This document shows, in pieces, positions 3,004-44,705 of a stretch of DNA of 59,943 nucleotides. Position 1 is the stretch's first letter. Every line of letters begins with the position of its first letter. Made by a program: the position numbers and the translations under genes. Location: positions 1-59,943 of the forward strand of contig CAZOCS010000001.1 in assembly GCA_964578365.1 (NCBI GenBank), given 5' to 3'. This DNA comes from an uncultured Candidatus Cloacimonadota bacterium (GTDB lineage: Bacteria; Cloacimonadota; Cloacimonadia; Cloacimonadales; TCS61). Below the pieces are notes generated by a model, which saw nothing but the letters and a program-made list of their open reading frames with translations, searched no databases and was not told where the DNA came from.

Positions 3004-4176
3004 ATGAAAAAAACGACTTTATTTCTTTTAGGTTTTTTGTTATTAGTAAGTTTAAATTGGGGGCAGAATGCATGGATAAATGAATTACACTATGATAATA
3101 CTGTCCCTTCCGGTGATTTGAATGAAGGTATTGAAGTGATCATCGAAAATGCTGGAAATTTCACAATTTCAAACTTTACTGTTACGCTTTATAATGGTTC
3201 TGGTGGAGCAACTTATGGATCACATTCCTTAGATACTTTCATAACCGGCAACACAATTGGTGATTTTACTTTTTATCATAAAATGATTACCGGAATCCAA
3301 AATGGTGCTCCAGATGGTATGGCTTTGGATTATGAAGGAACACTGATTCAGTTCTTAAGCTATGAAGGTTCTTTTATTGCAGTTGATGGAGTTGCTAATG
3401 GTCAAACTTCTTCAGATATAGGGGTTATGGAATTATCTCCAACTACGGATATACAATCATTACAACTTATTGGATCTGGAACACAATACTCTGATTTTAC
3501 ATGGGCAGCTGGTCTTGTGCAAAACTGGGGAGCACCAAATAACGGAGGAGATCAAATCCTTCCTGTCAACCTCTCATCTTTTTATGCGCTTTATATTGAT
3601 GGTAATCCAACTCTTTATTGGACAACTCAAACCGAAACAGAAAATGCATATTGGAATGTTTACCGTGGATCAAATAATAGCATTACAGAAGCTGTGCATC
3701 TTAATGTAATCGATCCTGTCCCCGGCAATGGAACCACAACAAATCCAACAGATTATGTGTATGTAGATACAGCTCCCGTTATTCAAAATACAACTTACTG
3801 GTACTGGATTGAAGATGTATCTACTGATGGTGAAACAGAAGTTCATGTACCAATTACTCTATTCATCCCTTTTGAAGATTCTCCTATTGCGCCTGATACT
3901 TATGGATTGCATCAGAATTATCCAAATCCATTCAATCCTAGTACAATAATTAGTTTTGCGTTAGAAGCAGAGAGTTATGTAGAACTTATTATTTATAATG
4001 TGAAAGGAGAGATAATAAAATCCATCTTTAGTGATCGTGTTTATGCAGATCAAACTACTTCAGTGATCTGGGATGGAAACGATAAGTTAGATAAACAAGT
4101 TTCTTCTGGTGTTTACTTCTATAAACTCATCACAAACACTAAAGAATATCAGAAGAAAATGCTACTTATGAAATAA
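3004..4176 (+). CDS. Secreted protein with an N-terminal lamin-tail-like (LTD) domain and a T9SS-type C-terminal sorting domain
   Basis: Signal peptide MKKTTLFLLGFLLLVSLNWG. WINELHYDN...GDLNEGIEVI resembles the INExHYDN...EFVEx start of LTD domains in ExeM/NucH-type proteins. C-terminus LHQNYPNPFNPSTIISF...VSSGVYFYKL is the Por/T9SS CTD signature. Confidence 0.75.
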   Translation: MKKTTLFLLGFLLLVSLNWGQNAWINELHYDNTVPSGDLNEGIEVIIENAGNFTISNFTVTLYNGSGGATYGSHSLDTFITGNTIGDFTFYHKMITGIQNGAPDGMALDYEGTLIQFLSYEGSFIAVDGVANGQTSSDIGVMELSPTTDIQSLQLIGSGTQYSDFTWAAGLVQNWGAPNNGGDQILPVNLSSFYALYIDGNPTLYWTTQTETENAYWNVYRGSNNSITEAVHLNVIDPVPGNGTTTNPTDYVYVDTAPVIQNTTYWYWIEDVSTDGETEVHVPITLFIPFEDSPIAPDTYGLHQNYPNPFNPSTIISFALEAESYVELIIYNVKGEIIKSIFSDRVYADQTTSVIWDGNDKLDKQVSSGVYFYKLITNTKEYQKKMLLMK

Positions 4177-10716: not shown

Positions 10717-11919
10717 TTGAAAATCGTAATTCAAAAATTTGGTGGTACATCATTACAAAATACAGAGATCAGAAATAAAGCGGCTGAACATGTCTCATCT
10801 GCAATAAGGGAAGGTCTTACTCCCGTTGTCGTTGTATCTGCAATGGGAAGAAATGGAGATCCATATGCCACTGATACACTCTTGCAAACTGCAGAAACAA
10901 TTTTCAAAAATATTTCTCCCCGTGAAAAAGATCTGATCATGTCTTGTGGTGAACTAATTTCTGCAGTCGTAATGGTGCAGACCTTAAAGCAAAAGAACAT
11001 TGATGCAGTTGCTCTTAATGGAATGCAAACCGGAATAATTACTGATGAAAATTATAATCAGGCAAATATACAAAAAGTTGTTCCTGATAATATATTTAAT
11101 GCAATCAATAATGGTAAAGTACCAATTGTAACCGGATTTCAGGGAATAAGTGAGAATGGTGAAATAACTACTTTCGGAAGAGGCGGAAGCGATACAACTG
11201 CAAGTATTCTGGCAGCAGCACTAAAAGCAGATCATATAGAAATATATTCGGATGTAGAAGGATTATTAACTGCTGATCCACAACAAATTCCCGATGCAAA
11301 GCATATCTCTAAAGCCAGTTATATCGAAGCTGTGGAGATGGCCAATAAAGGAGCGAGCGTAATACATCCACAAGCAGTTCAAATAGCTTCTCAATATAAG
11401 ATCCCAATAAAACTATTCTCAACTTCCAATAAAGAGAGATCAACTGTTATTCATGAAATGAAAAACAACAGGCCGGTTACTGGTATTACAAGTAAAACAG
11501 ACATCATCTACACGCGAATTTTTCCCAACCAAGAAAATATCCATAAAACAGGATTGAGCATTTTCCAAACTCTCGCGCTGCAAAAGATCAGCGTCGATTT
11601 TATTGATATTACTCCAGATCTGATATCATTTATTATTGATCAAGAGATGGAAAATAAACTAATAGAAATATTAAAAGAAAATAATTATAAGTTTAAAACT
11701 GAAAAAGATTTTTCAAAGATCTCTGTTATTGGCTCTGGAATGACAGGAATGCCGGGAGTTATGGCGAAAATTGTGAAGGCATTGAGTTCCGAAGATATTA
11801 TGATCTACGAATGTACAGATTCTTATACGACAATTTCTTGTCTTATAAAAAGTTTAGATGAAGATAAAGCAATATTAGCACTACACAAAGAATTTGAATT
11901 AGGAAATAAAAAATGTTAA
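10717..11919 (+). CDS. lysC: Aspartate kinase (monofunctional, C-terminal ACT domains)
   Basis: IQKFGGTSL, GRGGSDTTA and a C-terminal ACT-like region (ISVIGSGM). Length 400 aa. TTG start. Confidence 0.92.
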   Translation: MKIVIQKFGGTSLQNTEIRNKAAEHVSSAIREGLTPVVVVSAMGRNGDPYATDTLLQTAETIFKNISPREKDLIMSCGELISAVVMVQTLKQKNIDAVALNGMQTGIITDENYNQANIQKVVPDNIFNAINNGKVPIVTGFQGISENGEITTFGRGGSDTTASILAAALKADHIEIYSDVEGLLTADPQQIPDAKHISKASYIEAVEMANKGASVIHPQAVQIASQYKIPIKLFSTSNKERSTVIHEMKNNRPVTGITSKTDIIYTRIFPNQENIHKTGLSIFQTLALQKISVDFIDITPDLISFIIDQEMENKLIEILKENNYKFKTEKDFSKISVIGSGMTGMPGVMAKIVKALSSEDIMIYECTDSYTTISCLIKSLDEDKAILALHKEFELGNKKC

Positions 11920-12563
11920 AAAAAATAGTACTGATTTTTCTCTTGGCAACCATATTTATAGGTTTAAATGCTGAGATCACTAAAACACAGAATAATATGA
12001 ATCTGATTTTTTTGCGTGAATTAGATTCCAATTTATTAGAATCCATCAAGATAATGGATGCATATAATCAAGCTACGGATAATATTCCGTATGAGGTTTT
12101 AGGACTTGAGAAGTATCAGAAATTCCTGATGGAAATGACAATGATCTGCATGAACTTGAGAAATGATATTACCAGCTCAATAGAACTAAACTCAGAACAG
12201 CGCGAAGTGTTTGTGAAGGATCTGATAAGTTCTTTAAAACCTGATGTAAAAAGTATTACAGAATCAATTACAAAGCAGCAGGATCTTCAAGGTAAACAAT
12301 TCTGCAGATTATTAAAGCAGAAGATCAATACTCATTTGAAGGATATAAGAAAAGAAATAATTATTGAAGAGGAAAAGATAATAGAGAGTAAAACTTTTGA
12401 TCAATATTTTTTCCATCTCCATTCTCAACAATTTATTTATCAACTCGTGCTGAATTTCTTAAAACCTTCAGATCACTTAAGCAGGACAAATAGAGCGTTT
12501 TTAATCCGTGTTGCAGCTGAGATCGAATATAACATAATTAATACAGAGGTTCCAACAAAATGA
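11913..12563 (+). CDS. Hypothetical secreted protein
   Basis: 216-aa ORF with signal-like N-terminus MLKKIVLIFLLATIFIGLNA. No recognisable motif. Ends in TGA at 12561..12563. Confidence 0.6.
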   Translation: MLKKIVLIFLLATIFIGLNAEITKTQNNMNLIFLRELDSNLLESIKIMDAYNQATDNIPYEVLGLEKYQKFLMEMTMICMNLRNDITSSIELNSEQREVFVKDLISSLKPDVKSITESITKQQDLQGKQFCRLLKQKINTHLKDIRKEIIIEEEKIIESKTFDQYFFHLHSQQFIYQLVLNFLKPSDHLSRTNRAFLIRVAAEIEYNIINTEVPTK

Positions 12564-12748
12564 TAAAAATATTATTAACTATACTTACATTTATAATAGG
12601 CGCAGCAACCGGTTATTTATATTATCGAGTTATTGGCTGTAGAGGTGGAGGTTGACCAATGACATCAAACGTTTGGTCAAACGTTGTTATCGGAGCAATA
12701 TTTGGTTATTTACTGCTTTCGCCAGTTATAGAGAAATTATTGAAATAA
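12560..12748 (+). CDS. Small two-helix membrane protein with an in-frame TGA (12653..12655): candidate selenoprotein of a DUF6132-like family
   Basis: Not in the ORF track. The ATG at 12560 overlaps the upstream stop (ATGA). The frame reads MIKILLTILTFIIGAATGYLYYRVIGCRGGG-TGA-PMTSNVWSNVVIGAIFGYLLLSPVIEKLLK and ends at TAA 12746..12748, one nt before the next ATG. The result is a C-x4-(TGA)-P-x-T-S-N motif. Hairpins overlap or follow the TGA. Confidence 0.55.
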
Positions 12749-12749
12749 T

Positions 12750-13322
12750 ATGAATACTGAAGTGAAACTTATCTCTCATCCCACACTTGGTAAGATTCAT
12801 TTTAGAAAAAGCAGGAAAGCTAAATATCTGAGACTATCAATTGATAGTTCTAAGATAATTAATGTAACAGTACCTCGAAATAGTTCGATCAGAAACGCCG
12901 AAAAATTCCTCCAGTCTAAAATTGGCTGGATACATAAACATCTAAGTAAAATCGATAACAGAAATAATTTTACACTTCAATATATCAAAAATTCTAATAT
13001 ATACAACAAAGATGAAGCAAAACAAATCATTCGAGATAGGCTTAATGAACTGTCAATAATTTATAAACTAAGTTTCAATAGATCCTTTATCCGTTCTCAA
13101 AAAACGCGGTGGGGAAGCTGCTCTGCCAAGAATAATATTAATTTAAATATTAAACTTATATATCTACCGGAGAGCTTGCTGGACTATGTGATCATACATG
13201 AATTAGTACACACGAAGATTAAAAATCACAGCCCGTTATTTTGGGAGGAAATGACAAAATATTATTCTGACCCAAAAGCTATAGATAAAAAACTACGTAA
13301 ATATAACCTGAAATTATTGTAA
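12750..13322 (+). CDS. YgjP/DUF45-family (M48-like, SprT-like) metal-dependent hydrolase
   Basis: RWGSCSAKNNINLN...DYVIIHELVHTKIKNHSPLFWEEM matches the DUF45 signature WGSC...HELxH...NHSxxFW. Confidence 0.88.
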   Translation: MNTEVKLISHPTLGKIHFRKSRKAKYLRLSIDSSKIINVTVPRNSSIRNAEKFLQSKIGWIHKHLSKIDNRNNFTLQYIKNSNIYNKDEAKQIIRDRLNELSIIYKLSFNRSFIRSQKTRWGSCSAKNNINLNIKLIYLPESLLDYVIIHELVHTKIKNHSPLFWEEMTKYYSDPKAIDKKLRKYNLKLL

Positions 13323-34972: not shown

Positions 34973-36745
34973 TTACAATTTACACTTTGTGATCTCATTG
35001 ATCGTCTCTTTGATCAGTTGAAAATCTGTTTCTATTCTCTCTTTAGAAAATCCACCTGGCATAAACCGTGCCTGATCGCAGGTTTCAAAAAGTGTCTGTA
35101 TTTTTTTGATCAATTCTTCTGATATATCTCTTAGATTCATTTTAGATAAAATGTTTTCGGTGGAACTTCCTCGCGGTTCTTTTAGTTTATCTGCCAAATA
35201 GCTGCTCAATCCTAACTGTGCGGCGGCATAGAATCCTGAGTCATCTTGTGCTGCCAAGATACTTGCTTCTTTCATATATTTTTTTAAGATCTTATTTGCT
35301 TGTTTTTGACGGATGTAATCAACATTTCCTTTTAACTTCGCTTTCTCTTTAGAATATAATATTGAGGTGGGAATGAGAAGTAATATCATAAACCAGATAA
35401 ACCAGTAAAAAAACATATCATAATAAATTTTCTTTGAAGCTAAAGCGCTGTCTGTGATGATGAAACCGATATCTGAACCTTCCAGACTAACTATAGATTG
35501 TGCAGCACTGCTGGCAACATATGTAAGGTCACCTTCTCCGATCTTCAATTGGTATGGTTTAGTTTGCTGAGTTTTGTAGCTTTGGGCTGAAGTATCAAAA
35601 TATGTAAATGGAACAGACGGCAATGTGTAATTTCCCTTTTCCTGAGCTATGATCAAGTATTTAATTGTCTTCTTACCGGATATCTTGTTCTTATTAATAT
35701 CTGTGGTAATCTCCGGATCTAAGAATCTTAAGTTATTCACTTCCTTCAATTTTGGAACATCAAACTGCTTCAGATTTCCGGTCCCGCTAATCGTGATCGT
35801 ATAAGTAAATGAATCACCAACATTTAACTGGGTCTGGCTGATATTACTGGAAAGCTTGAATTTTCCTACGGCATTTGAGTAGGAGCTTTGTTTATTTTGA
35901 GGTATTGTCCGTATATTTACCGATATCGGCTTATTCTTAATGTTGTATCTCTTGGTTGTTCCAAAATCAAAGAAACTATGTGATTGAGTTCGAATATCAA
36001 CATTCAAGGCTACTGAAGGAATACTCATCTTCCCGCTTTTAGTTGGGAACAATGCAACTGAACGAATCAACATCACATTGTACATCACGCCATTGTATGT
36101 TTCACGATCGAAGCTTATACTCTCGGGTTTGTAGATATCTTCTTTCCAGAAACCTTCGAAATTCGTATCTCCGGCAAAAGAAAGATTGGCTATATCATAT
36201 CTGGAATAGAGCTTATATTCTACAATTATTGGTTCTTCTACATATACATTTTTTTTACTGATGTTTGCTTTTAAAAAAAGATTATCTGAGAGATCTAATG
36301 ATGAATTTGGTTGCTGAGTAAATGATGATGATGTTGGTGGAGCCGGTTGAGTAGTACCCTCTGAAACTTTTATATGAATAGGATCGGTTGTAAATGACTT
36401 ATCTTCGATCTTTATAGTTATTGGTGGGATTATATGATTTCCAATTTTATTGGGACGCAAAGTGTAAGTGAAACTTTTTGTAACTTTGGATGTCATTTTT
36501 CCGTTAACAATAGAATAGTTGGATGAGGATGAAGTGGAGGAACCAAGGTTCTCAAAGTTTTCTATTTTTGGTAATCTTGGAGTGGAAATATTACCCATTT
36601 TTTCACCGGAGATCTCAATTGTATATTTAACCAGATCAGAAGTTCCAACCTTGGTTCTATCAACATAAGATTCAACCTCTATATCCTGCGCAATTAGAAG
36701 TTGGCCGATTAAAAGTATACTTAATACCAAAATTATTTTCTTCAT
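34973..36745 (-). CDS. batD: BatD-like protein (oxygen-tolerance family)
   Basis: 590 aa. Signal peptide, repeated beta-rich modules (VDRTKVGTSDLVKYTIEISG, LNVGDSFTYTITISGTGN), a late TM helix and a cytoplasmic tail. This is the architecture and operon position of BatD. Confidence 0.75.
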   Translation of the reverse strand: MKKIILVLSILLIGQLLIAQDIEVESYVDRTKVGTSDLVKYTIEISGEKMGNISTPRLPKIENFENLGSSTSSSSNYSIVNGKMTSKVTKSFTYTLRPNKIGNHIIPPITIKIEDKSFTTDPIHIKVSEGTTQPAPPTSSSFTQQPNSSLDLSDNLFLKANISKKNVYVEEPIIVEYKLYSRYDIANLSFAGDTNFEGFWKEDIYKPESISFDRETYNGVMYNVMLIRSVALFPTKSGKMSIPSVALNVDIRTQSHSFFDFGTTKRYNIKNKPISVNIRTIPQNKQSSYSNAVGKFKLSSNISQTQLNVGDSFTYTITISGTGNLKQFDVPKLKEVNNLRFLDPEITTDINKNKISGKKTIKYLIIAQEKGNYTLPSVPFTYFDTSAQSYKTQQTKPYQLKIGEGDLTYVASSAAQSIVSLEGSDIGFIITDSALASKKIYYDMFFYWFIWFMILLLIPTSILYSKEKAKLKGNVDYIRQKQANKILKKYMKEASILAAQDDSGFYAAAQLGLSSYLADKLKEPRGSSTENILSKMNLRDISEELIKKIQTLFETCDQARFMPGGFSKERIETDFQLIKETINEITKCKL

Positions 36746-36773
36746 CTTATACCTTATAGAATCTCATGATGAT

Positions 36774-37220
36774 CTACCAGTACTTACCGGTTTTTGTTCT
36801 GTCAACATTCATTTTCTCTTTCTCTTTTTTCATCTCTTCTTTTTCTTTTTGCAATAGAGCTTTTAACATTTTCTCCGCATCTTCTTTCTTTTCTTCTTTT
36901 TGTTTTTCTTCCTGAGATTTCTGTTTTTGTTCCTGCTTTTGTTCCTCTTGTTTTTGCTCTTTCTCTTTTTGCTCATCATTTTGTTTGTCTTGTTGTTGCT
37001 GCTGTTCTTCTTCTTGAAGTTCTTTTTCGATAATAGCAAGTAGTCTCTTTAAATCTGCATTATTAGGATCTTTCTGCAATCCTGCACTAACAGTTTTATG
37101 AGCTTTAGTAAGTTGACTATTCAATAATTGATGTGCCCCGATATGAAAATAATCTTCTGCTGTTTGAGCTATTAGAAAACAAGCAGAAGCAAGGACTATT
37201 ATTATTATTAGGTATCTCAT
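36774..37220 (-). CDS. Small secreted/anchored TPR-like protein with a K/E/Q-rich low-complexity tail (BatC-like)
   Basis: Signal/anchor MRYLIIIIVLASACFLIA, one TPR-like unit, then QEEEQQQQQDKQNDEQKEKEQKQEEQKQEQKQK... Begins 2 nt after the preceding TPR gene. Confidence 0.6.
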   Translation of the reverse strand: MRYLIIIIVLASACFLIAQTAEDYFHIGAHQLLNSQLTKAHKTVSAGLQKDPNNADLKRLLAIIEKELQEEEQQQQQDKQNDEQKEKEQKQEEQKQEQKQKSQEEKQKEEKKEDAEKMLKALLQKEKEEMKKEKEKMNVDRTKTGKYW

Positions 37221-37222
37221 AT

Positions 37223-37885
37223 CTATCCCTTTATATCAGCTACTTTACCAAGACGTTCGATAAATTTTTTATAAGCAATAACAGATTCATCTTTGACCAA
37301 TCCTTCTTTCATAACATTATGTGCTTTGCGATATTTGTTTCTTGAAACAAGATCATCTGCTTGTGCTTTAATGTTTTTTGCAAATTCTGATGGTTCTTTC
37401 GGTTCAGGGGGTTCACCACTTTGATTTTCTTGTTTTTCCTTCTGCTGTCGCTGTAGCATTCTGGCAGCAAGTTCGTAATTGTAGCGTGCATCTATATTCT
37501 GTGGATCTTCAACCAAAGCATCCCGATAATTCTTTATAGCGTTTTTGTAATCTTTTTGCAGGAATTTTACGTTCCCAAGATTTTGTAATGCTTTTGACCT
37601 GTCTTTGAATTTCTCATTGTTTAGAGCAAGTTTATAATTCTGTTCAGCATCTTCCAGTAAGCCATTCTTAACCTGAGCATTTGCCTGATTAAAATGCAAT
37701 CGGGAATCTTTGGGATATTTAATGGCATTACGTTCGAAATTTCTCTCAGAATTCTCAAAATCTTCTTTATCATAAGATTTAACACCTTTTAAGTTTCTGA
37801 TGACTTTATCGTAATTCACAACATCAGAAAACAAAGTGCTGAAAGATATCAGCAGAATCAGTAGAATTAGAAATTTAGTTTTCAT
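37223..37885 (-). CDS. batC: BatC-like TPR protein
   Basis: Signal peptide and TPR units (ALQNLGNVKFLQKDYKNAIKNYRDAL). The start overlaps the batB stop (TAATG at 37883..37887). Confidence 0.7.
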   Translation of the reverse strand: MKTKFLILLILLISFSTLFSDVVNYDKVIRNLKGVKSYDKEDFENSERNFERNAIKYPKDSRLHFNQANAQVKNGLLEDAEQNYKLALNNEKFKDRSKALQNLGNVKFLQKDYKNAIKNYRDALVEDPQNIDARYNYELAARMLQRQQKEKQENQSGEPPEPKEPSEFAKNIKAQADDLVSRNKYRKAHNVMKEGLVKDESVIAYKKFIERLGKVADIKG

Positions 37886-38898
37886 TACAATACCCGCTTG
37901 AATTTTGTTTTCTTTTTATAGATGATAAGAGATTCTATCAGAAGTAAGATCAATGCAGCGATCACGAAATATTTATATTGCTCTTTGTATCTCACATATT
38001 CTTTAGAATCAAATTTCTTCTTCTCAAAAGAATTGATGTTTTTCATGATCTCATAGATCTCCGATTGTTGAGGTGTGATAGAGAAGAAGCGTCCACTTCC
38101 CATTTTAGCGATCTGCGTTAAAGTAGTAATATCAAGTTTTGTAAAAATAATATCACCTTTATCGTCTTTGGCATAAACAACATCACCTTCTCTATTTTTG
38201 ATAGGAATTGTGCTTCCTTCCGGTGAGCCTATACCTAGAGTATAAATTACAGCATTTTGTTTTCCGGCTTCTTCAGCAATTTCAGCGGCATTTTCTTCCA
38301 GATCTTCTCCATCACTTACCACGACTATAACTTTATGCTTTTCTTTCACACCAAAAAGTTCTAATGAAGTGGAAATTGCTTCACCAATATTTGTTCCATA
38401 AGAAGGAACAGTTTCCGTATCGAGTAGATTCAAAAACAGTTTTGCGGCATCGTAGTCGTTGGTTAATGGGCATTGTACAAAGCTCTTACCTGCAAAAGCA
38501 ACAATAGCAATTCTATCACCCTTAAGTTGATCAATGAAAAGTGAGATCTGATCTTTTGCTCTCTTGATCCTGCTAGGTTGAATATCTGTTGCATCCATAC
38601 TTTTGGAAACATCAATAGCAACCACAACATCAATTCCTTCTTTCTTAATGATCTGAACCTCTTTATCCCAGCGTGGTCTTGCCAGAGCTATAATAAGAAA
38701 AAGAAATGCAAATACAAATATAAAATTTTTGAGTGACCAGTGGAAACCCGAAAATTGCTGCATAAAGAAATCGTAGAATTTCACTTCTGCAAATTTAGAA
38801 AAATTCTTCTTCCTATTATGATTAGCAATTCCAATAAGAATTAGAAATACCGGTATCAGTATTATCAAAAACAATAAATATGGATTTCCCCAATGCAT
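37885..38898 (-). CDS. batB: BatB-like von Willebrand factor A (VWA) domain membrane protein
   Basis: Two N-terminal TM segments. MIDAS motif DVVVAIDVSKSM, ..IAIVAFAG.., ..VVSDGED... C-terminal TM segment. Confidence 0.85.
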   Translation of the reverse strand: MHWGNPYLLFLIILIPVFLILIGIANHNRKKNFSKFAEVKFYDFFMQQFSGFHWSLKNFIFVFAFLFLIIALARPRWDKEVQIIKKEGIDVVVAIDVSKSMDATDIQPSRIKRAKDQISLFIDQLKGDRIAIVAFAGKSFVQCPLTNDYDAAKLFLNLLDTETVPSYGTNIGEAISTSLELFGVKEKHKVIVVVSDGEDLEENAAEIAEEAGKQNAVIYTLGIGSPEGSTIPIKNREGDVVYAKDDKGDIIFTKLDITTLTQIAKMGSGRFFSITPQQSEIYEIMKNINSFEKKKFDSKEYVRYKEQYKYFVIAALILLLIESLIIYKKKTKFKRVL

Positions 38899-43635: not shown

Positions 43636-43670
43636 TACCAATTCCCAATTCCTAATCCCTAATCAATCTA
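43636..43670. repeat. Heptanucleotide tandem repeat (taccaat tcccaat tcctaat ccctaat caatcta) that includes the moxR stop codon
   Basis: Five consecutive 7-nt units read directly. On the minus strand this is TAG-ATTG-ATTAGGG-ATTAGGA-ATTGGGA-ATTGGTA. Confidence 0.85.
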
Positions 43671-44654
43671 TGGAACTTCGATCTCATCGAATAATCTTGT
43701 TACAATATCTTCTTGTGTGATCTGCTCGGCTTCAGCTTCATAAGTAAGAATAATTCTGTGCCTGAGGATATCTTTTCCTATAGCTTTGATATCATCTGGA
43801 GTTACATAACCACGATGTTCTAGGAATGCATGAGCTTTTGCAGCTTGAGCAAGATAGATCGTTGCACGTGGCGAAGCTCCACACTCAATAAGATCAGCAA
43901 GATCGTTCAGATTTTTATATTTGTCTGGCTCACGAGTTGCAAAAACCAGATCAAGGATATATTCCTTAATTTTATCTTCCATATAAATATCTTTGACCAA
44001 TTCTCTCATTTCCAGAATATCTTTAGGTTTCACTACTGCTTTCACCTTTATCTCATCTTTTCGAACCATTTTCTCAAGAATTAATTTTTCTTCTTCCCGA
44101 GAAGGATAATCAATAATCAGCTTGAGCATAAAACGGTCAACTTGAGCTTCCGGAAGCGGATATGTTCCTTCCTGTTCAAGTGGATTCTGAGTTGCCATAA
44201 CCAAAAATGGTTTAGGAAGAGGATAGGTTGTATCTCCAATAGTTACTTGCCTTTCCTGCATCGATTCCAATAATGCAGATTGCACTTTTGCCGGGGCACG
44301 GTTTATCTCATCTGCAAGTACAAAGTTAGCAAAAACAGGACCCTTCTTAGCAATAAATTCACTGGTCTTCTGATTATAAATAAGAGTCCCCATCAGGTCG
44401 GCCGGCAGTAGATCCGGAGTGAACTGAATACGTTTAAAAGTAGATTTGATAGTGTTTGCCAAAGTATGTACAGCAAGTGTTTTTGCAAGTCCCGGAACAC
44501 CCTCGAGTAAAATATGCCCATCTGCAAGCAGCCCAACAAGAAGACGTCTAATCATATATTTCTGACCAACAATAACTTTTTCTGTTTCTAGAGTTATCTT
44601 ATCGATCAACTCGCTTTTTTCCATCACTTTCTTATTAATTTCTTCAATTTTCAT
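43668..44654 (-). CDS. moxR: MoxR-family AAA+ ATPase
   Basis: Walker A LLEGVPGLAKT, Walker B LADEINRA and sensor region ATQNP. 328 aa. First gene of the Bat-type operon. Confidence 0.93.
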   Translation of the reverse strand: MKIEEINKKVMEKSELIDKITLETEKVIVGQKYMIRRLLVGLLADGHILLEGVPGLAKTLAVHTLANTIKSTFKRIQFTPDLLPADLMGTLIYNQKTSEFIAKKGPVFANFVLADEINRAPAKVQSALLESMQERQVTIGDTTYPLPKPFLVMATQNPLEQEGTYPLPEAQVDRFMLKLIIDYPSREEEKLILEKMVRKDEIKVKAVVKPKDILEMRELVKDIYMEDKIKEYILDLVFATREPDKYKNLNDLADLIECGASPRATIYLAQAAKAHAFLEHRGYVTPDDIKAIGKDILRHRIILTYEAEAEQITQEDIVTRLFDEIEVP

Positions 44655-44705
44655 TGATCCTCCAAATGATATTCATATTACTATTAACGTATTTAAAGAA
44701 TTTAG

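Follow-up and report, generated by a model that had tools for sequence, protein, structure and literature searches.

The stretch of DNA analysed here (59,943 nucleotides of a Cloacimonadota genome, hereafter the window) contains a small gene packed between two larger ones on the same strand (Table 1). Cloacimonadota are associated with anaerobic digesters. The start codon of the small gene overlaps the stop of the upstream gene as ATGA (12560..12563). From there the frame reads MIKILLTILTFIIGAATGYLYYRVIGCRGGG as far as codon 32, its sole in-frame TGA, and continues beyond it as PMTSNVWSNVVIGAIFGYLLLSPVIEKLLK to a TAA at 12746..12748, which is separated by one nucleotide from the ATG (12750) of a YgjP-like metallopeptidase gene. 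The initial annotation had proposed that the 186-nt gap between the flanking genes is filled by one such frame with a single in-frame TGA, and its coordinates, start and stop were all confirmed. The gene is overlooked by gene callers because of this TGA. The gene order here is kept in Cloacimonadota MAGs, and neither flanking gene in the window is of a redox type.

Table 1. Features of the small gene and its surroundings; positions are those of the window.
Feature	Positions	Strand	Basis or remark
Upstream gene, 216 codons, no informative domain	11913..12563	+	TGA stop overlaps the small-gene ATG
Small recoded CDS, DUF6132-family two-helix membrane protein	12560..12748	+	62 sense codons + TAA
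Predicted transmembrane helix 1, ~residues 3-25	12566..12634	+	AlphaFold2 of Cys orthologue P0002, mapped by alignment
TGT, Cys27, first Cys of C-x4-U	12638..12640	+	Column invariant (C26 of P0002), 114 homologues
Competing 8-bp stem (12652..12659 / 12673..12680) sequestering the UGA	12652..12680	+	Excludes the SECIS-like upper stem
In-frame TGA, proposed Sec codon, residue 32	12653..12655	+	Same column as the invariant Cys C30 in P0002
SECIS-like hairpin in the CDS, directly after the UGA	12656..12693	+	-9.6 kcal/mol, unconstrained MFE in the window
Upper stem-loop, 7 bp (12668..12674 / 12679..12685), tetraloop GGUC 12675..12678	12668..12685	+	
Predicted transmembrane helix 2, ~residues 38-61	12671..12742	+	AlphaFold2 of P0002, helix 36-59
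YgjP-like metallopeptidase gene, downstream	12750..13322	+	Pfam PF01863, E = 4e-43

The two halves of the protein together resemble DUF6132, a family of small membrane proteins that the initial annotation had named along with a consensus placing the TGA on the second Cys of a pair. Joined with Cys at the TGA, they match Pfam PF19628 (DUF6132) above its gathering threshold (24.4 bits, gathering score 23.2, E = 2.3e-5), and the match, residues 7-52 of 62 against model positions 8-53 of 60, spans the TGA. Other Pfam families at E <= 1 gave only weak sub-threshold matches (Glucos_trans_II, TMEM141, EMC6_arch and LapA_dom), and an NCBIfam scan with the window protein and two Cys homologues returned no relevant match. 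In total 1272 DUF6132 homologues were detected; one candidate, P0003 (2937 residues with 14 matching stretches), was rejected as a compositional artefact that has no Cys motif. The consensus of 114 homologues, IGCxSGSCPITSNPY, bears out the one named. The Cys motif of the family is C-x(3-5)-C, and the TGA of the window falls, as had been claimed, on the second Cys, which is invariant in all 114 aligned homologues.

The columns that are invariant in the Cys orthologue P0002 (G13, G17, G25, C26, G28, C30, N35 and G43) correspond by position to G14, G18, G26, C27, G30, TGA32, N37 and G45 of the window protein, in which the only mismatch is the TGA for the second Cys. The Cys-form proteins of the family (PF19628; from Bacteroidota, Cloacimonadota and Marinimicrobia MAGs) are of the same length class and form the same two-helix hairpin. 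They share with the window protein the invariant Gly, Gly, Gly-Cys, Gly, Asn and Gly as well as the motif G-C-x-S-G-x-C-P-I-T-S-N, and differ from it in having Cys at the TGA position and N-P-(W/Y), rather than N-V-W, as the consensus thereafter. Across a wider set of 151 sequences (149 representatives together with P0001 and P0002) the TGA column is Cys in 146; of the remaining five, four are TGA forms wrongly translated with Trp and one is a TGA form whose protein was cut short at the stop. A further 110 homologues have Cys in 108 cases, and both exceptions are TGA in the DNA. Among the DUF6132 database annotations examined, none names a Sec form.

An AlphaFold2 model (mean pLDDT 81.5) was obtained for P0002 using 113 homologues. 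It consists of two helices, the first of them 2-24, with the Cys motif in the loop between them. On the positive-inside rule, from the counts of Lys and Arg, this loop would face the outer side of the membrane. Profile searches found no relatives in the PDB, and Foldseek gave nothing meaningful (best E = 2.6).

The TGA codon in orthologues

A TGA at the same codon is found in 11 other sequences (L001, L004, L005, L006, L008, L014, L015, L016, L017, L022 and L023), whose identity to the window protein is 42-95% and in which the downstream half is conserved in frame. Contigs with the TGA form include JAGLPW010000117, JAYEKK010000311, DAOUTP010000017 and JAUVLU010000034, and assembly GCA_021157645.1 has the TGT form. 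With the window they make up a set of 12 independent Sec-type sequences (Sec forms), four of which are GTDB species representatives of Cloacimonadota; the additional sequences come mostly from Cloacimonadota or from loci syntenic with Cloacimonadota. A TGA recurring at one column in 11 further, independent sequences goes beyond chance. TGT occupies the column in L002/L003/L007 and L010. The TGA is present in close orthologues, as the initial annotation had anticipated, and in distant ones. A sister species that is syntenic and about as far away in DNA sequence carries TGT at the Sec codon, which is a classic Sec/Cys exchange.

In the downstream half, 11 of the 17 degenerate codons vary synonymously among the Sec forms, and because they do so while the amino acids stay constant, this half is concluded to be translated. 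It is highly improbable that the TGA is a true stop, leaving a 31-residue peptide, two separate peptides or a decaying DUF6132 pseudogene. Standard gene callers do give the 31-residue product alone (P0019, locus L017), and the window has an ATG (12659) two codons past the TGA from which a second peptide might start. However, a pseudogene would not retain a single lesion, always at this codon, in different species, and the preservation of the TGA with its downstream frame in all 12 sequences, the conserved amino acids of the second half amid varying synonymous sites, and the fit of this half to helix 2 of the family with its invariant Asn and Gly all argue against termination. Restart at ATG 12659 in a split gene was likewise rejected: five Sec forms (L014, L015, L016, L022 and L023) have no ATG after the TGA, so translation restart cannot account for their conserved second half.

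Read-through of the UGA can in principle insert other residues: a near-cognate or suppressor tRNA, or a local change of the genetic code, could give Trp, Cys or Gly. This reading is very unlikely. Metagenome gene calls do place Trp at the codon (P0001, P0004, P0005, P0013, P0153 and P0155), but these calls come from short contigs with an in-frame TGA, on which the caller most likely switched to a TGA-sense table. The family column is invariantly Cys and never Trp or Gly. A TGA-sense code had been thought improbable from the outset and is excluded for the window: the upstream gene has an orthologue of equal length (216 codons) in L002 that is closed by TAA, so the TGA at 12561..12563, which closes the window gene at the corresponding point, is a genuine stop, and no other gene of the 60-kb window has an internal TGA or encodes another selenoprotein.

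That the window yielded no tRNA, and no gene for the Sec machinery among the open reading frames tested, could be read in favour of such alternative decoding. No selA, selB, selC or selD was found there, ten open reading frames of the size of SelA, SelB or SelD being other enzymes or having no Pfam match, and tRNA genes are absent both from the window and from 15 related loci. Against this, PMC5330540 describes a tRNA-Sec of 'Cloacimonetes type', which lends support at the level of the phylum. The residue inserted at the UGA is presumably Sec rather than another.

The hairpin downstream of the UGA

The RNA that follows the UGA is predicted to form a hairpin whose imperfect lower stem leads through an internal loop to an upper stem-loop, with the onset of the GGUC loop 19 nt after the UGA. 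An aacgtt/aacgtt stem (12668..12673/12680..12685) had been pointed out in the initial annotation as resembling a bacterial SECIS. This stem exists, and an extra U-A pair (12674/12679) closes the GGUC tetraloop above it. The hairpin is conserved: all 12 Sec forms preserve its six core pairs (60/60 cells in 10 of them), and the apical loop is GGUC in 10, GGUU in one and GGGU in one.

Published criteria for a bacterial SECIS (bSECIS) comprise a loop of 3-9 nt, a stem of 4-16 bp, a G in the first two loop positions, a spacing of 16-37 nt and an MFE <= -7.5 kcal/mol (PMC13188914). The window hairpin lies within each of these limits, as do all 12 Sec forms for loop, stem (6-9 bp), G position and spacing (19 nt). 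With the SECIS fold, an MFE of -7.5 kcal/mol or below is reached in only 4/12 (the window at -9.6, L006, L008 and L023), and the other eight range from -3.8 to -6.4. A search of Rfam at gathering and permissive thresholds gave no SECIS family, the sole match being a chance one to CRISPR-DR.

In fdhF mRNA the SECIS loop starts 18 nt after the UGA, compared with 19 nt in the window. The 17-nt element of the E. coli fdhF type, GGUUGCAGGUCUGCACC (GGUUGCA-GGUC-UGCACC; PMC3834832), has the same GGUC apical loop as the window hairpin. Both this SECIS and the bSECIS model (PMC13188914) have the hairpin inside the reading frame, immediately 3' of the UGA, and the G that the model specifies in the first two loop positions is likewise present. 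Hairpins of the window type differ from the fdhF element in their weak AU-rich stem (about -4 to -12 kcal/mol), in showing no evident bulged U and in having a rival stem that can sequester the UGA; recognition by SelB is putative here. The resemblance in loop and spacing to SelB-type SECIS elements (PMC3834832) also counts against read-through by another tRNA, in which the hairpin would merely slow termination.

The rival structure is a perfect 8-bp stem that contains the UGA and had been noted as the other way in which this RNA could fold. It exists, being contained in an MFE fold of the region, and is the unconstrained MFE choice in 5 of the 12 Sec forms, but it is not conserved in the most divergent of them: its pairs are formed in 90% of cells overall and are broken in L015 and L016. 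Because of these breaks and its incompatibility with the conserved stem-loop it was rejected as the SECIS and is kept as a competing structure.

It is conceivable that Sec is inserted and that 12668..12685 is not the SECIS, the stem being a by-product of the encoded N-V-W-S-N-V peptide and the signal lying elsewhere or being non-canonical. Such a reading is unlikely. Part of the stem is indeed forced by conserved residues (Asn, then a hydrophobic residue); five of the six core pairs are present in the Cys forms L018, L019 and L020, and close Cys forms have the whole stem. In a natural Cys form the loop is GGGC where the window has GGUC. The rival UGA-containing stem is largely conserved as well, and the folding test failed to support the hairpin, the region folding with a stability like that of shuffled sequence (z = -0.26, not significant). 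As the fold is not thermodynamically significant, comparative evidence was relied on. Covariation across orthologues is sparse: the core stem, whose pairs are kept, shows a single two-sided change (U-A to A-U) along with several wobble changes, and shuffle controls were mostly not exceeded.

Several observations oppose a mere by-product of the peptide. Synonymous variation is seen in none of the five degenerate codons of the core hairpin but in 29 of the 47 in the rest of the gene (Fisher p = 0.013), and the frozen positions include codons that are rare in the window (AAC, 24% of Asn codons; TCA, 21% of Ser codons), so that the choice AAC GTT. TCA AAC GTT has a probability of about 0.003 under window codon usage. 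At the position where the family consensus has Pro, all 12 Sec forms encode Val (GUN), and it is this substitution, giving N-V-W, that creates the 5' arm of the hairpin. The stem is absent from the Cys forms L009 and L011, which retain 2/6 core pairs. Finally, an unrelated gene, the rhodanese gene of L015, has an in-frame TGA of its own that is followed at a near-equal distance by a hairpin with a GGUC loop (see below).

Probable selenocysteine and possible function of DUF6132

Judged from sequence comparison, the small gene is very likely a genuine selenoprotein gene of a Cloacimonadota genome and of the ordinary Cys/Sec-exchange type. The ribosome would read the UGA at 12653..12655 as Sec instead of as a stop, and the signal for recoding would be the SECIS hairpin within the coding sequence (12656..12693), with its GGUC tetraloop 19 nt after the UGA. 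The loop sequence is that of the E. coli fdhF element bound by SelB, and the spacing is nearly the same. The predicted product is a 62-residue DUF6132 hairpin of two transmembrane helices that would carry Cys27-x4-Sec32 in its 11-residue inter-helix loop, the stretch around Sec reading GGGUPMTSNVW.

The gene very probably encodes an unlisted selenoprotein, which would make DUF6132 a new entry among bacterial selenoprotein families. Table 1 of a 2026 survey of 119 prokaryotic selenoprotein families has no entry for PF19628 and no CxxxxU motif (PMC13188914). A literature search on DUF6132 gave nothing relevant, and one on selenocysteine or selenoproteins in Cloacimonas and Cloacimonadota gave only the Secmarker paper. 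MerT-like and YeeE/YedE proteins are, by family annotation, membrane transport proteins. A putative mercuric transport protein (MerT-like, PF02411) and YeeE/YedE are among the listed predicted selenoproteins (PMC13188914 Table 1), and like the window protein they have Sec in a short motif containing Cys or Sec. They have no detectable sequence relation to it (Pfam scan, E <= 1) and are larger and polytopic, with the motifs C/SxxU and GUxSG as opposed to C-x4-U in 62 residues.

Because the neighbours of the gene in the window are non-redox, ideas on its function have to be borrowed from other lineages, where about six independent contexts are available. In L020/L021 the end of a glutaredoxin gene encoding a CSWC motif overlaps the start of the DUF6132 gene, in L019 a thioredoxin-like gene is a neighbour, and in L011/L012 DUF6132 is fused to a rhodanese. 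The Sec form of L015 lies next to the rhodanese gene mentioned above, whose TGA is situated in a C-x4-TGA active-site loop with the 5-bp GGUC-loop hairpin 21 nt downstream. The rhodanese domains of the TsoB/rhodanese system are the best match of this Sec-type rhodanese, although the score is far below both family cutoffs, and the DUF6132 proteins match neither the TsoB model nor any other NCBIfam model. The system resembles the DUF6132 loci in the four-residue spacing of its chalcogens and in combining a rhodanese with a membrane module.

By analogy with these contexts, a redox or sulfur/selenium-relay function of the C-x4-U pair is possible and is put forward tentatively. At the membrane surface the pair may form a redox-active selenenylsulfide/thiol-selenol centre. 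Its partners may be small thiol-redox or sulfur-transfer proteins of the cytoplasm (glutaredoxin, thioredoxin-like or rhodanese), since in other lineages the genes of such proteins are coupled with DUF6132 genes or fused to them. That one clade probably encodes Sec at the second invariant Cys suggests that this Cys is catalytically or redox active in the family. More speculative, and rather doubtful at present, is the broader proposal that DUF6132, as an unrecognised selenoprotein family, the C-x4-U rhodanese of L015 and the Cys forms coupled to glutaredoxin or fused to rhodanese together represent a minimal membrane-anchored chalcogen relay. If this is true, a two-helix hairpin would display a Cys-x4-Sec/Cys centre at the membrane surface, and sulfur, selenium or reducing equivalents would be passed between a carrier in the cytoplasm and the membrane or periplasm, a job like that of DsbD/CcdA done by a 60-residue protein.

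In public annotations of Cloacimonadota the gene is absent, cut to 31 residues or mistranslated with Trp, and a GGUC-loop hairpin 19-21 nt after a UGA may serve as a search pattern for more selenoprotein genes in the phylum. A very small membrane protein would be added to a selenoprotein catalogue dominated by soluble enzymes of the thioredoxin fold. DUF6132 is widespread and has so far been without a known function, and the Sec clade, together with the coupling to redox and rhodanese genes, would provide the family with its first testable functional hypothesis.

A probable selenoprotein gene of the DUF6132 family

The reading frame at 12560..12748 consists of 31 sense codons, a TGA (12653..12655), a further 30 sense codons and a TAA stop (12746..12748). 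Re-reading of the sequence bears out the initial annotation, which had described this frame with a lone in-frame TGA. Its ATG overlaps the TGA that ends the preceding 216-codon gene (ATGA), and the downstream neighbour, a YgjP gene, begins at 12750, 1 nt past the TAA. The window has a G+C content of 34.6%; of the 54 long stop-to-stop ORFs in it, seven end in TGA. As the orthologue of the upstream gene in the syntenic locus L002 is also 216 codons long and ends in TAA, the TGA of the upstream gene is a true stop, in keeping with the earlier view that TGA is a genuine stop elsewhere in the window. No other window ORF contains an internal TGA flanked by coding sequence on both sides. The frame is very probably a real selenocysteine-encoding gene. 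The features discussed are collected in the table.

Table. Coordinates of the DUF6132 genes, the hairpin and associated genes. Bare coordinates refer to the window, and those with an L prefix to related loci.
Feature	Location	Strand	Remarks
Probably recoded DUF6132 gene	12560..12748	+	single reading frame
Upper stem of hairpin	12668..12674 paired with 12679..12685	+	RNA folding
Tetraloop GGUC	12675..12678	+	starts 19 nt after UGA
Rhodanese gene, 111 codons	L015:133-468		in-frame TGA at L015:346-348
Sec-type DUF6132 gene	L015:488-706		rhodanese gene 19 nt upstream
Cys-form DUF6132 behind small redox gene	L020:4768-5189, L021:158-579		glutaredoxin
Cys-form DUF6132 behind small redox gene	L019:289-767		thioredoxin-like fragment
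DUF6132-rhodanese fusion	L011:about 3007-3507, L012 (same sequence)

Joined with Cys at the TGA, as the initial annotation had proposed, the 62-residue product scores 24.4 bits against Pfam DUF6132, passing the gathering score of 23.2; the match covers residues 7-52 and therefore spans the TGA position. A scan of the window protein against NCBIfam matched no model. An exhaustive HMMER search with the Cys-form orthologue P0002 gave 230 cluster representatives at E <= 0.001, and a profile search of a 5.8-billion-protein collection gave 1272 DUF6132 members. The best 120 of these 1272 originate from Cloacimonadota, Bacteroidota and Marinimicrobia MAGs; the source names listed among them are all 'DUF6132 family protein', 'hypothetical' or evident misnomers, and none contains 'selenoprotein'. 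The best E-value in the representative search belonged to P0003 (2937 aa, 14 matching stretches), which lacks the Cys motif and was rejected as a compositional or repeat artefact. The alignment of 114 sequences gives the family consensus IGCxSGSCPITSNPY with both Cys invariant, so the consensus given in the initial annotation was right, with the second Cys of the pair at the TGA position.

The AlphaFold2 model of P0002 made with this alignment (mean pLDDT 81.5) is a helical hairpin, in which helices 2-24 and 36-59 are joined by a loop (25-35) containing the Cys pair. No PDB relative was found by sequence profile or by fold (best E = 2.6). The mean number of Lys plus Arg is 1.8 and 2.4 in the two tails compared with 0.45 in the loop, and this distribution of charge in the sequence suggests an N-in/C-in topology, in which the loop carrying the Cys/Sec pair would face outwards.

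Probable exchange of Sec and Cys among relatives

A C-x(3-5)-C motif is present in 146 of the 151 sequences from the first searches (149 representatives, P0001 and P0002). The five exceptions are a 31-residue truncation and four proteins with 'W' at the second-Cys column; two further 'W' forms were found later, beyond the 151. The DNA of all six 'W' forms and of the truncation has TGA at this column. The proteins translated with 'W', all from public metagenome gene calls, are P0001, P0004, P0005, P0013, P0153 and P0155 (loci L001, L014, L015, L016, L022 and L023), and for P0019 (L017) other annotation pipelines gave only the 31-residue N-terminal fragment. The 'W' calls most likely arose when gene callers changed over to a TGA-sense table in handling short contigs. 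'W' where the family has an invariant Cys can serve to flag hidden selenoproteins.

Scanning GTDB species, each represented by one genome, gave five Cloacimonadota loci, four with TGA (L004, L005, L006 and L008) and one with TGT (L007, on the same contig as L002). The independent Sec-type sequences number 12 (the window, L001, L004, L005, L006, L008, L014, L015, L016, L017, L022 and L023), and their proteins share 42-95% identity with that of the window. TGA in the same column of relatives, which the initial annotation had named as support, is thus present in 11 sequences besides the window. The divergent Sec forms L014, L022 and L023 lie between homologues of two window genes, GNAT and YgjP, so their loci too are syntenic and Cloacimonadota-like.

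The half 3' of the TGA is in frame in all 12 Sec forms. Within the Cloacimonadota group its amino acids are kept and 11 of 17 degenerate codons vary synonymously, which is the signature of translated sequence. Restart of translation after the TGA was ruled out as the source of this second half, because an ATG is lacking 3' of the TGA in five Sec forms.

The window is collinear with named Cloacimonadota contigs at a DNA identity of 80-88%. The Cys-form species, at 82% identity, does not stand further from the window than the Sec-form species do, which points to a recent Sec-to-Cys change accompanied by a one-codon deletion. Compared with window 12560-12748, the Cys-form loci L002:10001-10183 and L010:6-188 have TGT in place of TGA; relative to the Sec forms they have one Gly codon fewer (C-x3-C as opposed to C-x4-U), and the loop of the hairpin described below is changed from GGUC to GGGC (Ser to Ala). 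These three linked changes would be consistent with a SECIS constraint that was relaxed after conversion.

No tRNA was found in the window, and no SelA, SelB or SelD among its ten plausibly sized ORFs. A 'Cloacimonetes type' tRNA-Sec has been reported at phylum level (PMC5330540).

A SECIS-like hairpin after the UGA

Folding of 45 nt from each UGA of the Sec forms gave a hairpin that begins directly after the UGA. Both stems named in the initial annotation are present in the sequence; the second, considered SECIS-like, has one added closing pair, ends in a GGUC loop in the window and is conserved. The spacing from UGA to loop is 18 nt in E. coli fdhF mRNA, compared with 19 nt in the window. 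The loop is identical to that of the 17-nt E. coli SECIS recognized by SelB, GGUUGCA-GGUC-UGCACC (PMC3834832). Bacterial SECIS elements have a loop of 3-9 nt, a stem of 4-16 bp, G in the first two loop positions, a spacing of 16-37 nt and an MFE <= -7.5 kcal/mol (PMC13188914, Fig. 2 legend). Apical loop length lies in this range in all 12 Sec forms, as do the upper stem (6-9 bp) and the spacing from the UGA (19 nt), and all 12 have G in the first two loop positions (GGUC in 10, GGUU in one and GGGU in one). The MFE is at or below the threshold in four of the 12, including the window at -9.6 kcal/mol.

Across ten sequences, all 60 cells for the six core pairs hold standard pairs. The core stem shows a single two-sided change, from U-A to A-U in L016, along with several wobble changes; covariation is thin, with most shuffle controls not exceeded. 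The stability of the hairpin region does not exceed that of shuffled sequence (z = -0.26), Rfam gave no match, and some pairs are imposed by conserved residues. In the Cloacimonadota group the five degenerate codons of the core hairpin show no synonymous variation, compared with 29 of 47 that vary in the rest of the gene (Fisher p = 0.013). The codons chosen in the hairpin are rare in the window (AAC is 24% of Asn codons, TCA 21% of Ser codons), the joint probability of the observed choice being about 0.003.

Among Cys forms, the close L002 and L010 keep the stem, L018, L019 and L020 keep five of the six core pairs and L013 four; the stem is missing only in L009 and L011 (two of six). At L018:5001-5240 (P0006, a TGC form on a 1.4-Mb contig) the near-intact hairpin ACGUCU-GGUC-AGUCGU occupies the same position, and could be either left over from an earlier Sec state or just a consequence of the shared N-V-W-S peptide.

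The other stem, 12652..12659 with 12673..12680, is present in the window but broken in L015 and L016. It includes the UGA, competes with the SECIS-like hairpin and is the unconstrained MFE structure in five of the 12 Sec forms. Once the UGA is in the ribosomal A site this stem would already be melted, leaving the downstream stem-loop free to form.

The L015 contig, 745 nt in length, carries two unrelated genes, each with one TGA at a Cys-type site plus a GGUC-loop hairpin. Besides DUF6132 there is a rhodanese gene with exactly one in-frame TGA, situated in the active-site loop (YC-TGPG-TGA-KSS, spacing C-x4-U) and followed by a 5-bp hairpin, CAGCC-GGUC-GGUUG, the loop of which starts 21 nt after the UGA. 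Its best match, far below both cutoffs, is to the rhodanese domains of two known selenoproteins, TsoB and NF041203, and it is likely to be a Sec-rhodanese. It is difficult to account for two such genes, with the same loop at the same distance from the UGA, by anything but Sec decoding.

Gene contexts and the place of DUF6132 among selenoproteins

In L020/L021 the end of a gene for a 78-residue glutaredoxin with a CSWC motif overlaps the DUF6132 start, and in L019 the end of the thioredoxin-like gene is the start of the DUF6132 gene. The L011/L012 protein joins a DUF6132 domain, GCSTGGCPMTSNPY, to a rhodanese domain at its C terminus whose active-site loop is CRSGQRS, and this fusion is a direct link of the family to sulfur transfer. 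With the rhodanese gene of L015, these contexts tie DUF6132 in other lineages to small genes of thiol redox or sulfur transfer. Non-redox contexts are those of L018 and of the Cloacimonadota themselves. The most economical reading, a tentative one drawn from the contexts in other lineages, is that DUF6132 could form a membrane-anchored redox or sulfur/selenium-relay centre, which would cycle between thiol-selenol and selenenylsulfide states.

Elsewhere in the window, genes for BatD-like and VWA-domain proteins lie on the opposite strand (34973..38898 and 43668..44672, both -), close to an ORF whose translation we take to be a MoxR-type AAA ATPase. These genes resemble a Bat-type operon and are unrelated to the DUF6132 finding.

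New bacterial selenoprotein families are still regularly reported. No relevant mention of 'DUF6132' was found in the literature searched, and the 119 prokaryotic selenoprotein families and subfamilies tabulated in a May 2026 review (PMC13188914) include neither a PF19628 entry nor a CxxxxU motif. DUF6132 is unmentioned in the BSepDB paper, NCBIfam carries many selenoprotein models and none for DUF6132, and no retrieved DUF6132 sequence contains U. Given this absence from sources on known selenoproteins, DUF6132 is classed as a new selenoprotein family, found by standard logic; in mechanism it is a case of ordinary Sec recoding as in other bacteria, with classic Cys/Sec exchange. The selenoprotein is unusually small and membrane-embedded. 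Its recognition offers an initial clue to the function of a widespread DUF and makes good a systematic omission from Cloacimonadota annotation.
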